The notes under the pieces were generated by a model. That model worked only from the letters and a program-made list of their open reading frames with translations, had not been told where the DNA came from and ran no database searches. Made by a program: the position numbers and the translations under genes. This document shows, piece by piece, positions 1,125-4,189 of a stretch of 5,751 nucleotides of DNA. The stretch spans positions 1-5,751 of IMG/VR virus record IMGVR_UViG_3300045988_012461. The stretch is one strand, 5' to 3'. Every line of letters starts with the position of its first letter. Position 1 is the stretch's first letter. This DNA is from a virus.

Positions 1125-1293
1125 GAGTTTTCAACACTTTCAACAGGTTTTCAACAACAAGTTGCACAAAGAAATCCGTCAAAATGACGAACATTCAACA
1201 ATTCAACAAGTTTTCAACAAAGTTTTCAACAGGCAAAAAAGCAATAAATAAACGTAGTAACGTTAAAAAAACGAGTTTTCAACACTTTCAACA
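1125..1293 (+). repeat. Array of nine same-orientation TTCAACA (five as GTTTTCAACA) iteron-like repeats in the VP2-VP4 intergenic region
   Basis: TTCAACA starts at 1130, 1139, 1150, 1194, 1202, 1213, 1225, 1278 and 1287 (three clusters, 8-12 nt spacing). The 21-mer gagttttcaacactttcaaca is exact at 1125-1145 and 1273-1293, and each copy is followed by acaacaagtt (1154-1163, 1311-1320). The repeats are certain; their function is not. Confidence 0.75.
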
Positions 1294-2377: not shown

Positions 2378-2518
2378 CGCGCACAGCGCTAAAAAGGAAT
2401 GGATTTAGCCGAGTTCCGCTTTAGCTCCACACGGCAAGGCGCTAAAGCGCCATCAAAACAAAGGAGCACAGAAAGCACCCGATCGGGAAGAAGTTGCAGC
2501 AGAAATTTAAAAATTTAC

Positions 2519-2547
2519 TTGACTTAAAAAATTAAATATGGTATAAT
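2519..2547 (+). promoter_or_regulatory. Near-consensus sigma70/sigmaA-type promoter with extended -10 and A/T-rich UP-like tract
   Basis: TTGACT (2519-2524), 17-nt spacer, TGg-TATAAT (TG 2539-2540, -10 at 2542-2547). aaatttaaaaattta (2503-2517) lies just upstream. The next ORF starts at 2593. Confidence 0.6.
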
Positions 2548-2592
2548 AAAGGTGGAAAAAGACCACCAAAAACCGAAAGAGAGGTAATCAAA

Positions 2593-2793
2593 ATGGAATA
2601 TAGCAATGAATACTTTAACCGAAACGGGTGGAATGCATCAGTTGACATGTACAGATCGAGGTACTACGCAGAAAAAGCAAAACAAAGTCCGAATGACGTA
2701 ATAATCAAAGGCAAAAAAACAGGCCTGTACAAAATACTAACGAGGAAAGAATACAGAGAATACAAACAAAGACCGTCATGGCAAGAATACTAA
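2593..2793 (+). CDS. Hypothetical 66-aa protein (Tyr/Lys/Arg-rich ORFan, no hydrophobic segment)
   Basis: ATG 2593 preceded by gaggt (2581-2585) at 7-nt spacing; TAA at 2791-2793. First ORF after the strong promoter. I recognise no family. Confidence 0.55.
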   Translation: MEYSNEYFNRNGWNASVDMYRSRYYAEKAKQSPNDVIIKGKKTGLYKILTRKEYREYKQRPSWQEY

Positions 2794-2813
2794 CCATTGA
2801 CAAAAATAAGGAG

Positions 2814-2843
2814 TTGACAAAAAATGATTATAAGCTATATAAT
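2814..2843 (+). promoter_or_regulatory. Second promoter-like element overlapping the peptidase start (weakly supported)
   Basis: TTGACA (2814-2819), 18-nt spacer, TATAAT (2838-2843). ttgacaaaaa also occurs at 2797-2806, so two copies flank the SD AAGGAG (2808-2813). A transcript starting here would lack both in-frame ATGs (2824, 2842) of the peptidase ORF. Confidence 0.3.
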
Positions 2844-3213
2844 GAACACAAACGGAAACGAAAAAATAGGAAAACACTTCACAGTGAAAGAATTTGCGTG
2901 CAAAGATGGCTCACAAGTGGTCTTTATTGACAGCTATTTGGTAGGCGTACTGGATATCCTACGAAATGAGCTAAATAAACCAGTCATAATCACCAGCGGA
3001 TACAGAACACCGGAGTGGAACGCAAAATGTGGAGGAGCAAAATACAGCTACCACATGCGCGGTATGGCAGCAGACATCCGAGTAAATGGAATAAGCCCGA
3101 AAGAACTCGCCAACAAACTGAATGCAATCGTACCGGATGAATGCGGCATTATCGTATACAAAAGTTGGGTACACTTTGATGTGAGAACCAACAAATACAG
3201 AAAGGGGGTGTAA
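2824..3213 (+). CDS. Zinc D,D-/L,D-peptidase of the M15 (Peptidase_M15_3 / VanY-like, LAS) family; putative endolysin, 129 aa
   Basis: SD AAGGAG (2808-2813) lies 10 nt before ATG 2824. Family motifs in order: HFTVKEFACKDG, SGYR (58-61), SYHMRGMAAD (S-x-H-x-x-G-x-A-x-D, i.e. H77-x6-D84) and WVHFD (H117, D119). All metal ligands are present. TAA at 3211-3213. Confidence 0.85.
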   Translation: MIISYIMNTNGNEKIGKHFTVKEFACKDGSQVVFIDSYLVGVLDILRNELNKPVIITSGYRTPEWNAKCGGAKYSYHMRGMAADIRVNGISPKELANKLNAIVPDECGIIVYKSWVHFDVRTNKYRKGV

Positions 3214-3215
3214 AA

Positions 3216-3332
3216 ATGGCACACAGAAGCGGAGCAGGTCAAGGCGATCAGAAACGTTTTACCCAGACTGCAAAGCGGGTAAAAAACATCAACGTAAGAC
3301 CGAAGGTATCACGAGGCGGGATCAGACTGTAA
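3216..3332 (+). CDS. Small basic DNA-binding/packaging protein (phiX174 J / gokushovirus ORF8 analogue), 38 aa
   Basis: Not in the ORF track. ATG 3216 follows gggggtg (3204-3210). Translation: MAHRSGAGQGDQKRFTQTAKRVKNINVRPKVSRGGIRL*. It is highly basic and ends in RGGIRL, a C-terminus I recognise from small microvirus proteins. TAA at 3330-3332. Confidence 0.7.
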   Translation: MAHRSGAGQGDQKRFTQTAKRVKNINVRPKVSRGGIRL

Positions 3333-3398
3333 AAGAAAGGAGGCAATAGACCGAAGGTACCACGAGGCGGGATCAGACTGTAAAAGAAAGGAGGCAAT
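3297..3398 (+). repeat. 51-nt x 2 tandem direct repeat (one mismatch)
   Basis: agaccgaaggta[t/c]cacgaggcgggatcagactgtaaaagaaaggaggcaat at 3297-3347 and 3348-3398. The only difference is t3309 versus c3360. Each copy carries the last 11 codons of the J-like ORF, its TAA stop and a strong SD aaaggagg. Confidence 0.95.
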
Positions 3399-3401
3399 TT
3401 G

Positions 3402-3518
3402 ATGGCACTGATTAAGGTCAAGGACGTTAAAGAAGCAATTGCACTGATGATGGACATCCTTGAAAAGCTCGATGAGATCTACCACGCACTGAAGGACGCA
3501 AGCAAAAACAAAGAGTAA
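3402..3518 (+). CDS. Hypothetical 38-aa helical protein
   Basis: Not in the ORF track. ATG 3402 lies 7 nt after aaaggagg (3387-3394). Translation: MALIKVKDVKEAIALMMDILEKLDEIYHALKDASKNKE*. TAA at 3516-3518 overlaps the SD of the next gene, so it fills the gap between flanking genes exactly. Confidence 0.45.
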   Translation: MALIKVKDVKEAIALMMDILEKLDEIYHALKDASKNKE

Positions 3519-3528
3519 AGGAGAAAAC

Positions 3529-3783
3529 ATGAAACTGAAATTCTATTCATTCCACGATGCACTGACCAACGGCTACTCTCAGCCGTTCCTGCAGAACAAC
3601 AGAGCACAGGCAGTCAGAACGGCACGATGGAAAGCCAACGAAAGCAAGCCGAGTGAAATCGAAGACATCAGCTTAGTTGAACTGGGCGAATTCGACACCG
3701 AAACCGGCTACATGAGCGAGGCAATGCCTGAACACATCGCACGGCTCATCGACCTGAAGGAGACGGCCAATGTTAAATCCTGA
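3529..3783 (+). CDS. VP5-like non-structural protein (conserved gokushovirus small protein, proposed phiX174 C analogue), 84 aa
   Basis: SD aaggag (3518-3523) lies 5 nt before ATG 3529. The pattern F-x-x-x-D...Y-x-x-PF...A-x-R...D-x-x-L-x-x-LGEFD-x-x-TG matches my memory of gokushovirus VP5/ORF5 proteins. Family assignment is from memory only. Confidence 0.6.
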   Translation: MKLKFYSFHDALTNGYSQPFLQNNRAQAVRTARWKANESKPSEIEDISLVELGEFDTETGYMSEAMPEHIARLIDLKETANVKS

Positions 3784-4189
3784 TGTGCTGGTAAGATACT
3801 GCGGCTTACCGACCGAGAGAGTGGCAAACAATCCGGGCAGCAAGACCGCGCCAACGTGGAAAGCGGTCAAGCGGCCAAACGGCACTACCGACTACATCCA
3901 ACAGCCGGATGAAAACACATACGAAAAAATCCAGAAAGCGGGCGAAGGCTACGACCTTGCAAGCGCGATCGCAAGGCTGGAAGCGGGAGACACCAGCATC
4001 AAGGCAAAGAGCATGATATACACCGAGGGGACAGAACTCGAAAATCTGCCGAAGGACATCATGACGATGCACGAAAAAGCAGAAACAGCAGCCGAAACGC
4101 TGGAACAGCTGAAACAGGTGCAGCAGACCGAACAGCCAAAGCCGGAAGAAAAAAAAGAAGAGGTGAAGGAAAACGAACCGAAACAGTGA
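3770..4189 (+). CDS. Putative internal scaffolding protein (VP3-like), 139 aa, with acidic Glu/Lys-rich C-terminus
   Basis: SD aaggag (3757-3762) lies 7 nt before ATG 3770. It overlaps the previous ORF by 14 nt. TGA at 4187-4189 is 25 nt before the VP1 start. The position immediately upstream of VP1 and the size fit gokushovirus VP3. I see no diagnostic motif. Confidence 0.5.
   Translation: MLNPDVLVRYCGLPTERVANNPGSKTAPTWKAVKRPNGTTDYIQQPDENTYEKIQKAGEGYDLASAIARLEAGDTSIKAKSMIYTEGTELENLPKDIMTMHEKAETAAETLEQLKQVQQTEQPKPEEKKEEVKENEPKQ

Follow-up and report, generated by a model that had tools for sequence, protein, structure and literature searches.

In bacterial chromosomal origins, the initiator DnaA recognizes a group of same-direction DnaA boxes and then engages an adjacent run of trinucleotides, the DnaA-trios, from which the duplex is opened. 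This "basal unwinding system" (BUS) is described for the incC boxes #6 and #7 of B. subtilis and for oriC2 of C. difficile (Richardson 2016/2019; Pelliciari 2021; Oliveira Paiva 2020; PMC8287927). The published search rules require a DnaA box with at most two mismatches to TTATCCACA or matching the species-specific box, an optional tandem second box with at most four mismatches, and a spacer of 0-16 bp between the box and the first trio (commonest about 10-13 from the better box). These are followed by at least three trios 3'-NAN-5' with the consensus 3'-GAT-5', downstream of the box on the strand opposite the one reading 5'-TTATCCACA-3', and by an AT-rich unwinding region. DnaA loading on the trios needs duplex boxes, the DnaD recognition element lies opposite the trios, and either strand of an origin is a helicase-loading substrate. 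Extrachromosomal or extra copies of origin-type DnaA-box clusters are also found. T5-like phages carry eight in the injection-stop region (bioRxiv 10.1101/866236), while the inc regions and DnaA-box clusters of B. subtilis and datA of E. coli titrate DnaA, and oriC plasmids or minichromosomes replicate from such sequences. Plasmid R6K presents a DnaA box in a hairpin, the single-strand initiation signal or "A site" of the ABC primosome, as reported by Masai and Arai 1990. In contrast, the iterons of plasmids and CRESS-DNA viruses are bound by the element's own Rep and co-vary with it.

Here we studied an array of short repeats in IMG/VR record IMGVR_UViG_3300045988_012461, of which the whole stretch of 5,751 nt (hereafter the window) was analysed. 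The window is a circular microvirus genome with a terminal redundancy of 55 nt, encoding VP1, VP2, VP4, VP3, VP5 and an M15 peptidase; the array is therefore not located on a chromosome flanking dnaA, and whatever its resemblance to part of an oriC, it is not an oriC. A first-pass annotation had described nine same-strand TTCAACA repeats upstream of the rep gene (VP4), and this observation holds. TTCAACA occurs nine times, all on the + strand, at 1130, 1139, 1150, 1194, 1202, 1213, 1225, 1278 and 1287, and nowhere else in the window, whereas shuffled sequences give 1.14 copies on average with a maximum of 6, and 0 of 200 shuffles reach nine. Five copies are exact GTTTTCAACA, and an inverted GTTTTCCACA lies at 1113-1122 on the - strand. 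Start-to-start spacings are 9 and 11 in the first cluster, 8, 11 and 12 in the second and 9 in the third, consistent with the 8-12 nt annotated. The exact 21-mer GAGTTTTCAACACTTTCAACA is found at 1125-1145 and 1273-1293, 148 nt apart, and the palindrome GAAAAC-TTGA-GTTTTC at 1117-1132. The annotation also called the stretch T-rich, which is true only in relative terms: T is enriched compared with the genome (25% against 17%), but A still dominates (44%), and the AT skew stays at +0.31, similar to the rep gene.

We further found a feature that the annotation had missed, a run of six CTA triplets at 1294-1311 directly abutting the last repeat. CTACTACTA is expected 0.01 times and is found only here, and this run is the key to the interpretation. 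Taken together, the region can be described as follows.

1107-1331, + strand: the whole oriC-like cassette of about 225 nt, with DnaA-box clusters, DnaA-trios and an AT tract, forming a discrete movable unit.
1113-1121, - strand: inverted putative DnaA box TTTTCCACA, a perfect match to TTWTNCACA, which with 1127-1136 forms the annotated hairpin or palindrome; present in only some lineages and absent from most.
1128-1156, + strand: distal box cluster A, with TTTTCAACA (1128-1136), CTTTCAACA (1137-1145) and TTTTCAACA (1148-1156).
1177-1189, no strand assigned: small spacer hairpin CGTCA-AAA-TGACG between clusters A and B, not conserved in sequence.
1192-1231, + strand: distal box cluster B, with four boxes (cATTCAACA, aATTCAACA, TTTTCAACA, TTTTCAACA) at 8, 11 and 12 nt spacing; the most conserved part of the array, with the nearly invariant consensus TTTCAACAaTTCAACAAGTTTTCAACAAa..TTTCAACA.
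1251-1264, no strand assigned: spacer hairpin AACGT-AGTA-ACGTT containing a conserved ACG; a related GTTACG lies at the same relative place in a bacterial origin (L150) and in a siphovirus contig (L111), both described below.
1276-1293, + strand: two tandem trio-proximal boxes, TTTTCAACA and CTTTCAACA, the counterparts of B. subtilis boxes #6 and #7.
1294-1311, - strand: six DnaA-trios, reading (CTA)6 on the + strand and 3'-GAT-5' six times on the - strand; the + strand TACT repeats fit the 5'-TnnT-3' form of the DnaD recognition element.
1312-1320, + strand: CAACAAGTT, invariant in the gokushovirus cassettes but absent from the bacterial origins and from the siphovirus copy, hence phage-specific.
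1319-1330, no strand assigned: AT-only tract TTAATATATAAA, the presumed start of the unwinding region.

Next we examined whether the window conforms to the published BUS rules. The box TTTTCAACA at 1276-1284 has two mismatches to TTATCCACA, the tandem second box CTTTCAACA at 1285-1293 directly abuts it and has three mismatches, and the spacer to the trios is 0 bp from the proximal box and 9 bp from the better box, while relatives have a 3-5 nt C-rich junction. Six perfect 3'-GAT-5' trios follow on the expected strand. The box-to-trio orientation was checked against bacterial loci, the published C. difficile oriC2 trio (5'-CACCTACTACTATTACTACTATGA-3') and the canonical viral modules described below. 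The AT-only tract is conserved at its start, and an AT-rich tract follows the trios in all phage and bacterial copies, but at 12 nt it is shorter here than in the chromosomal origins.

We then asked where else this motif is found. In a scan of bacterial genome contigs limited to 120 rows, four genome bins of Oscillospiraceae, Ruminococcus or Clostridiales (contigs L172, L150, L199 and L167) carry such arrays between dnaA and dnaN, or directly after dnaA where the contig sequence ends before any dnaN, as identified by Pfam; these are a sample rather than a census and do not identify an exact host species. TTTTC(A/C)ACA is the dominant repeated 9-mer in these regions, which hold 6-32 sites within one mismatch of TTTTCAACA and almost no TTATCCACA. 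TTTTCCACA is the second commonest box variant in both the phage modules and the bacterial origins. The box weight matrix, the flanking preferences and the 8-12 nt spacing are the same in 1188 phage boxes and 84 origin boxes. A profile HMM of the phage module aligns collinearly and end to end with the L150 origin, from Oscillospiraceae (E=4e-18), and also with L167, L199 and L241. The arrangement aGTTTTCAACAgTTTCAACA-(CCCC)-CTACTAC is shared with the L150, L167, L199 and L172 origins, in the same orientation, and the alignment shows a shared end aGTTTTCAACAgTTTCAACA-CCCC-CTACTACTACTA-AT that resembles the published C. difficile trio. Both the chromosomal BUS and the cassette have distal and proximal groups of same-direction boxes, two tandem proximal boxes, a 0-4 nt and often CCCC junction, and at least three trios followed by an AT tract. 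They differ in that the cassette sits on a 5.7-kb ssDNA phage away from dnaA and dnaN, is only about 225 nt with about 10 boxes and a 12-nt pure AT tract, lacks the second box region upstream of dnaA, carries CAACAAGTT and moves between positions and strands.

Comparison with related microvirus genomes had been named beforehand as a test of the repeats. We found the cassette in more than 130 independent gut gokushovirus genomes from several studies and animal sources, and a chimeric assembly with host DNA was rejected on this basis. Across 66 non-redundant modules, constraint falls on the boxes, the trios and the start of the AT tract, and not on the spacers. Of 139 genomes, 54 carry the cassette on the coding strand upstream of rep, 3 on the coding strand downstream, and 74 on the opposite strand downstream. 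The Rep proteins are only 30-40% identical across lineages. One relative, L268, whose Rep is 95% identical to that of the window, joins the flank ...agtaacagcaatcaaaaaaaag directly to aaagcgaggtg... without the cassette and carries it inverted downstream of VP4, indicating a clean excision and an inverted re-insertion within a single Rep lineage, while the hairpin at 1346-1380 stays upstream of rep. We saw no terminal inverted repeats, and together with the counterpart in chromosomal origins this argues against a MITE or IS. The cultured gokushoviruses phiMH2K, Chp2 and SpV4 have no such module, which is consequently accessory and not required for microvirus replication.

These results bear on the main interpretation of the first-pass annotation, namely Rep (VP4)-binding iterons next to a stem-loop, as in CRESS or rolling-circle origins. 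Clusters of short same-direction repeats at about one helical turn near a rep gene do resemble iterons; in the window the array lies about 100 nt upstream of rep, and in most genomes the AT end faces rep. However, near-identical repeats are shared by Reps only 30-40% identical, unlike iteron-Rep co-variation, the same repeats occur in bacterial chromosomal origins and in a siphovirus, and the cassette shows no fixed orientation or position relative to rep. We also considered a related version in which DnaA melts the AT tract so that Rep can nick at the phage-specific CAACAAG/TT, which loosely resembles the phiX174 origin CAACTTG/ATATTAATAAC, because CAACAAGTT is invariant in the gokushovirus cassettes. 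This is disfavoured by the L268 inversion, which would flip the packaged strand if the nick site were inside the cassette, and by the absence of both the array and CAACAAGTT from Chp2, phiMH2K and SpV4. The repeats are therefore probably not Rep iterons, and we regard this explanation as very unlikely.

The annotation had alternatively proposed that the repeats fold, in the ssDNA form, as a complementary-strand origin. A more specific form of this idea is that the packaged single strand mimics one strand of an already melted origin, with DnaD binding the CTA/TnnT strand, or DnaA the TAG strand and the hairpin-borne box at 1113-1136, to recruit helicase and primase for complementary-strand synthesis in the manner of the R6K A site. 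The hairpin 1113-1136 would indeed present a duplex DnaA box on the single-stranded genome, either strand of an origin is a helicase-loading substrate, and the predicted ssDNA fold of 1086-1387 is more stable than shuffles (z=-3.6), although most of the fold energy comes from the 1346-1380 hairpin outside the cassette and the array is largely unpaired in the centroid structure. The small hairpins are not conserved among the cassettes, which occur in both orientations and, unlike the A site, hold many boxes plus trios. Given further that DnaA loading on trios needs duplex boxes and that a dsDNA siphovirus carries the same module, we consider this reading improbable.

Overall, the interpretation given in the first-pass annotation is partly supported: its main inference is not supported, but its fallback of host-factor-binding sites of a replication origin, and its speculative alternative that TTTTCAACA is a relaxed DnaA box, are both supported at sequence level. 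Our best explanation, which we hold with reasonable but not full confidence, is that the TTCAACA repeats are host-type DnaA boxes with the 9-mer consensus TTTTC(A/C)ACA, and that together with the adjacent trios and AT tract they form a copy or mimic of the dnaA-dnaN-side chromosomal origin of gut Oscillospirales. Under this hypothesis, and following the B. subtilis work, host DnaA-ATP would occupy the distal clusters (1128-1231) and the two proximal boxes (1276-1293) on the double-stranded replicative form, oligomerise from the proximal boxes onto the 3'-GAT-5' trios of the - strand and open the duplex at 1294-1330; as at a Firmicute oriC, DnaD would then bind the opposite strand, and DnaB and DnaI would load the replicative helicase. 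The phage would thereby gain a host-initiator-driven way to open or replicate its replicative form that does not depend on the orientation of the cassette or its position relative to rep, and many copies would also soak up DnaA. What the analysis establishes is the identity of the motif, its grammar, orientation and conservation, its chromosomal counterpart and the mobility of the cassette, whereas DnaA binding, strand opening, helicase loading and the benefit to the phage are inferred from sequence and by analogy. Several points weigh against the model. TTTTCAACA departs from the classical consensus at position 6, which is C in TTWTNCACA, and its recognition by DnaA is inferred only from its dominance in dnaA-dnaN origins. 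Changes in domain IV of DnaA (GGRDHSTIVYA in place of GGRDHTTVLHA) may shift the box specificity from C to A at this position. Genome-wide, TTWTNCACA with one mismatch is not enriched (15 against 10.9 expected), and only the clustering is significant. The pure AT tract is just 12 nt, and the phage has no counterpart of the second origin half upstream of dnaA, while C. difficile oriC2 alone was not unwound in vitro and B. subtilis needs distal boxes or excess DnaA. Finally, the invariant CAACAAGTT is not accounted for by this model.

Alternatively, the cassette may not fire as an origin but act only as a sink that, present on many replicative-form copies, titrates host DnaA, which would block or retime host chromosome initiation or tether phage DNA to DnaA as proposed for T5. 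The roughly 10 boxes per genome of host origin type, the occurrence of the cassette in either orientation and position and the short AT tract are compatible with this view. T5-like phages likewise have a conserved, oriC-like cluster of host boxes in a non-coding region, but theirs are canonical or near-canonical E. coli boxes arranged in inverted-repeat pairs on a dsDNA genome, no trios or unwinding end are described, and the proposed role is membrane tethering or injection stop rather than replication. The titration elements and oriC plasmids, for their part, are chromosomal loci or laboratory constructs, whereas here a natural virus carries the module. Titration could explain the boxes but not the trios: the trios, their zero-to-few-nt junction with two correctly oriented tandem boxes and the AT tract are as conserved as the boxes across more than 60 non-redundant modules, and reproduce the unwinding end of the chromosomal origins. 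We therefore consider a sink alone possible but unlikely.

We also examined whether the repeats could be sites for another host regulator, such as the Spo0A 0A boxes (TGTCGAA, reverse complement TTCGACA) used by phi29, a partition centromere or transcription-factor sites of a rep promoter. TTCAACA is one mismatch from a 0A box, many Oscillospirales form spores, and arrays of short direct repeats resemble plasmid centromeres. However, G never occurs at the diagnostic fourth heptad position in the 1188 phage and 84 origin boxes, where A is found in 88-92% and C in 8-11%; the variant actually used, TTTTCCACA, moves towards the DnaA consensus and away from the 0A box; and the single TTCGACA/TGTCGAA of the window is at 3691, outside the array. 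No sigma-70 promoter was found in 900-1500 on either strand, and the TTCAACA copies are not at -35 distance from any -10 element. As the position and orientation relative to genes vary and the junction with the trios is specific to DnaA origins, this possibility is remote.

Microviridae are textbook rolling-circle phages thought to rely on their own HUH Rep, and we found no paper linking microviruses to DnaA boxes or oriC. A conserved, movable, host-type module in a large clade of human and animal gut gokushoviruses would mean that they also engage the master initiator of the host, whether to open or replicate the double-stranded form, to persist or to manipulate host replication. A more speculative possibility, which we consider less likely than not, is that these gokushoviruses and at least one siphovirus of the same hosts have captured a working chromosome-type origin, so that host DnaA would fire on the replicative form and let it replicate theta-style as a "minichromosome". 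This would permit a plasmid-like carrier state in slow-growing, spore-forming Oscillospirales, independent of the phage's own rolling-circle Rep, and would be a new lifestyle mechanism for Microviridae; as a by-product, the box variant carried by a phage would report its host clade. The module points to Oscillospirales as hosts, and gives a concrete host prediction for uncultured gut Gokushovirinae, namely bacteria whose origins use TTTTC(A/C)ACA, here Oscillospiraceae and Ruminococcus; it also documents a non-canonical, inferred DnaA box in that clade. As a compact natural module of about 225 bp with predicted unwinding function, the cassette could be used to study BUS function or to build vectors for these hard-to-manipulate anaerobes.

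Next, we looked for the module outside gokushoviruses. The siphovirus contig L111 carries it between a tail-gene block and an oppositely oriented ORF. Canonical TTATCCACA-GCCC-CTACTACTA-AT modules occur in 89 other viral contigs of IMG/VR, and as no dnaA or dnaN lies in their flanks, host contamination was rejected as their source, suggesting that phage-borne BUS modules are widespread and overlooked. The unrelated microvirus L481 has a single TTATCCACA in a hairpin stem with CTACTACTA in the loop, an arrangement that would be compatible with the ssDNA-level reading.

Finally, we asked whether the region could be a known RNA or coding sequence. A search against Rfam found nothing in the region, the only weak hit being PrrB/RsmZ at 975-1085 (E=0.04, below the gathering score). 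The ORFs 967-1251 and 1184-1360 have no Pfam hit, and conservation is box-wise with variable spacers and non-triplet indels.

The window is a complete circular gokushovirus genome of 5696 nt, with the last 55 nt repeating the first 55. Pfam annotation and tblastn placed all genes on the + strand:

about 4190 across the end to 150, + strand, VP1
189-1049, + strand, VP2
1388-2377, + strand, Rep/VP4 (PF23343)
2824-3213, + strand, an M15 peptidase (PF08291, E=3e-23)
3529-3783, + strand, VP5
3770-4189, + strand, VP3

The closest GenBank relatives are human-gut gokushoviruses, KX513876 at 87% and MT121961 at 86%. The M15 peptidase gene is typical of this gut clade and is absent from the annotation of the cultured gokushoviruses, and a near-consensus sigma-70 promoter (TTGACT, 17 nt, TATAAT; 2518-2546) lies upstream of ORF 2593-2793. 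We also found an almost perfect 51-nt tandem duplication (98% matches) at 3297-3398, which covers the 3′ end of a small basic ORF (3217-3332, possibly the DNA-packaging protein) and the AAGGAGG that follows it.

The repeats lie in the VP2-VP4 intergenic region, just after the VP2 terminator hairpin (1056-1081 plus a T-run). We confirmed the observation of the first-pass annotation that TTCAACA occurs nine times, all on the + strand between 1130 and 1293, and we found it nowhere else, whereas shuffled sequences are expected to hold 1.14 copies and 0 of 200 shuffles reach nine. Five copies are GTTTTCAACA, and an inverted GTTTTCCACA lies at 1113-1122. The spacings (9 and 11; 8, 11 and 12; 9), the exact 21-mer at 1125-1145 and 1273-1293 and the palindrome at 1117-1132 are likewise as annotated, while the description of the stretch as T-rich is true only in a relative sense, because T makes up 25% here against 17% genome-wide but A still makes up 44%. 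An uninterrupted (CTA)6 run at 1294-1311, immediately after the last repeat, had been missed; it is the only such run in the genome, with 0.01 expected.

Next we examined whether the region is conserved in relatives. The intergenic DNA matches 28 GenBank gokushovirus records from human, pig, mink, raccoon and monkey faeces at 73-96% identity, although in several of these the coding DNA does not align at all, and in KT264791 only 1129-1231 matches. Pattern scans of IMG/VR and a Rep-based search brought in many more genomes, and all complete close relatives (Rep 80-97% identical) have 7-12 copies. An alignment of 16 modules and a conservation map over 66 non-redundant modules show a fixed architecture, which runs from box cluster A through a variable spacer, a nearly invariant cluster B (TTTCAACAaTTCAACAAGTTTTCAACAAa..TTTCAACA), a second variable spacer, two tandem boxes, a 0-5 nt C-rich junction and CTACTACTAC..CTACAACAAG to an AT tract. 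Constraint falls on the boxes, the triplets and the start of the AT tract and not on the spacers. Directly after the triplets, CAACAAGTT (1312-1320) is invariant in all gokushovirus cassettes aligned.

Position and strand, however, are not fixed. Among 139 microvirus genomes carrying the tail motif, 54 have the cassette on the coding strand upstream of rep, which is the lineage of the window, 3 have it on the coding strand downstream of rep, and 74 have it on the opposite strand just downstream of rep, with Reps only 30-40% identical to that of the window; the remaining 8 had no detectable VP1/VP4 match. In L268, a relative whose Rep is 95% identical to that of the window, the VP2-VP4 spacer (L268:440-620) reads ...agtaacagcaatcaaaaaaaag|aaagcgaggtg..., which is the window's flanks cleanly joined without positions of about 1107-1331, and the cassette sits inverted just downstream of VP4 (L268:~1620-1810). 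This natural excision and re-insertion defines the ends of the cassette at about 1107 and 1331, and the cassette is therefore a discrete unit that recombination moves around. The contig L269 (10.7 kb) consists of two different gokushovirus genomes joined, one of each cassette-orientation type, and is probably an assembly chimera or a co-integrate. The cultured gokushoviruses phiMH2K, Chp2 and SpV4 have nothing like the cassette.

In L268 a hairpin found at 1346-1380 in the window stays in front of rep when the cassette moves. In the window, GAGGTG (1337-1342) is followed by this perfect 11-bp hairpin (1346-1356 / 1370-1380) and by the rep ATG at 1388, with no Shine-Dalgarno sequence at normal distance from the ATG, so the hairpin may bring the Shine-Dalgarno sequence close to the start, a split ribosome-binding site as in T4 gene 38. 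Alternatively, it could be a regulatory or origin stem-loop.

To examine what the cassette is, we scanned one genome per bacterial species for three closely spaced TTCAACA copies. This partial scan returned non-coding arrays with the same grammar in Oscillospiraceae, Ruminococcus and Clostridiales bins. In at least four of these bacterial contigs the array lies right after dnaA, as judged by Pfam and tblastn; in three it lies between dnaA and dnaN, while the fourth, L167, ends before any dnaN:

L172, dnaA 3487-4824, dnaN 5117-6223
L150, dnaA 3712-2330, dnaN 1585-443
L199, dnaA 272-1633, dnaN 2467-3603
L167, dnaA 5092-6477

Those intergenic regions contain 6-32 sites within one mismatch of TTTTCAACA, mostly in one direction. 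TTTTCCACA is the second commonest variant, and canonical TTATCCACA is almost absent, so TTTTC(A/C)ACA is the box type of these chromosomal origins. The weight matrix, the flanking preferences (a/g-T-T-T-T-C-A-A-C-A) and the 8-12 nt spacing of 1188 phage boxes match those of 84 origin boxes. G never occurs at the heptad position diagnostic for Spo0A boxes, and no sigma-70 promoter was found in 900-1500 on either strand, so that an array of Spo0A boxes, a centromere or a promoter array is a remote possibility. Domain IV of DnaA in these Oscillospirales (L150, L167, L172 and L199) reads GGRDHSTIVYA/S where E. coli has GGRDHTTVLHA, and the Thr-to-Ser and His-to-Tyr changes, which fall at base-contacting positions, might underlie the A-for-C preference at box position 6.

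The arrays also end in the same way, with aGTTTTCAACAgTTTCAACA-CCCC-CTACTACTACTA followed by AT-rich DNA, and a profile of the phage modules aligns collinearly with these loci. The E-values are inflated by the repeats, but the collinearity is informative.

Alignment of the phage-module profile with bacterial loci (locus; identity; E-value)
L150; Oscillospiraceae dnaA-dnaN origin; 4e-18
L199; Oscillospiraceae dnaA-dnaN origin; 7e-14
L167; Ruminococcus origin; 1e-12
L241; array not next to dnaA; 1.5e-12

In the bacterial contig L241 the full TTCAACA box-trio-AT module (L241:2400-2800) lies between groEL and a metallophosphoesterase/ddl operon, and may be a second DnaA-box cluster or a displaced origin.

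This end is the “basal unwinding system” (BUS) of bacterial origins, namely DnaA boxes, a short GC junction, and DnaA-trios with consensus 3′-GAT-5′ (5′-CTA-3′ on the box strand); the published C. difficile trio is 5′-CACCTACTACTATTACTACTATGA-3′. The window satisfies the box, spacer and trio rules of the published search program, with a box with 2 mismatches (TTTTCAACA), a tandem second box with 3 mismatches, a spacer of 0 or 9 bp and six perfect trios, followed by an AT tract that is short, at 12 nt. The cassette belongs to the BUS class at the level of sequence, whereas its biochemical activity is inferred. It is not an oriC, because it is neither chromosomal nor next to dnaA. A reading in which the cassette is only a DnaA sink, for which T5-like phages offer a precedent, would explain the boxes but not the equally conserved trios and junction, and we consider it unlikely.

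Next we examined whether similar modules are present in other viruses. The box-to-trio orientation of the window equals that of the chromosomal loci and also that of canonical TTATCCACA(TTATCCACA)-GCCC-CTACTACTA-AT modules found in 89 other IMG/VR viral contigs (L401-L489, for example L403, L416, L429, L439, L458 and L485), many of which have 4-14 boxes within 300 nt and none of which has dnaA or dnaN in the flanks retrieved. BUS-like origin modules therefore seem common in phage or mobile-element contigs. The same TTCAACA cassette lies in L111 (1800-2000; IMG/VR contig 3300045988_134603), a 39-kb siphovirus contig with tape-measure, Dit and Gp37-like tail genes, where it follows the tail-gene block and its terminator and precedes an oppositely oriented ORF. 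Two other large phage contigs, L089 (77 kb) and L112 (16 kb), have GTTTTCAACA clusters without a clear trio run. The siphovirus copy is without the phage-specific CAACAAG; likewise, CAACAAGTT is absent both from it and from the bacterial origins, and the loose resemblance of this element to the phiX174 origin core may be chance.

These data bear on the interpretation in the first-pass annotation, which had proposed Rep-binding or host-factor-binding sites of a replication origin. This interpretation is only partly supported. Rep iterons, or a Rep nick site at CAACAAG/TT, are contradicted by the host origins, by the sharing of the cassette across Reps 30-40% identical and by the L268 inversion, and appear very unlikely, while host-factor sites and the relaxed DnaA box suggested as a speculative alternative are supported at sequence level. 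An ssDNA priming signal is also improbable. The 1113-1136 hairpin would give a duplex box, but it is not conserved, the array is unpaired in the centroid fold, and most of the folding score (z=-3.6) comes from the 1346-1380 stem outside the cassette. In L481, a 5955-nt microvirus with a Rep 29% identical, a single canonical DnaA box does sit in the stem of a hairpin with CTACTACTA in the loop (gagTTATCCACAGGGCatgtCTACTACTAGCCCTGTGGgTAActc), which is reminiscent of DnaA-box hairpin single-strand initiation signals.

Collectively, the analysis shows that the motif, grammar, orientation and conservation are those of the unwinding end of a DnaA origin; the function proposed for the cassette tolerates either orientation and several positions, which points to action on double-stranded DNA. 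How the cassette works, including binding by DnaA, is inferred from work in B. subtilis. Under this model, host DnaA-ATP would fill the distal clusters and the two proximal boxes on the replicative form, and DnaA would oligomerise onto the - strand trios and open 1294-1330. DnaD would then bind the opposite strand, where its recognition element lies opposite the trios and the + strand TACT repeats fit the TnnT form, and DnaB and DnaI would load the helicase. The recognition of TTTTCAACA by DnaA is itself inferred from its genomic location, and the host clade from only the four origins returned by the partial scan. Furthermore, the phage has no counterpart of the origin half upstream of dnaA, and C. 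difficile oriC2 alone was not unwound in vitro; the invariant CAACAAGTT is left unexplained by the model. We therefore hold with fair but not full confidence that the cassette is a DnaA-binding, oriC-like unwinding module acting on dsDNA, and with considerably less confidence any specific downstream benefit, which could be Rep-independent opening or replication of the replicative form with DnaA titration as a side effect.

DnaA origins and the BUS are well established, and DnaA boxes occur in plasmids and in T5, but full-text literature searches found no paper linking gokushoviruses or Microviridae with DnaA boxes or oriC, and none describing DnaA-trios in phages. What differs here from the established systems is that a complete BUS-type module, as judged from sequence, is carried as a mobile cassette by an ssDNA phage clade and uses a non-canonical, host-clade-specific box.
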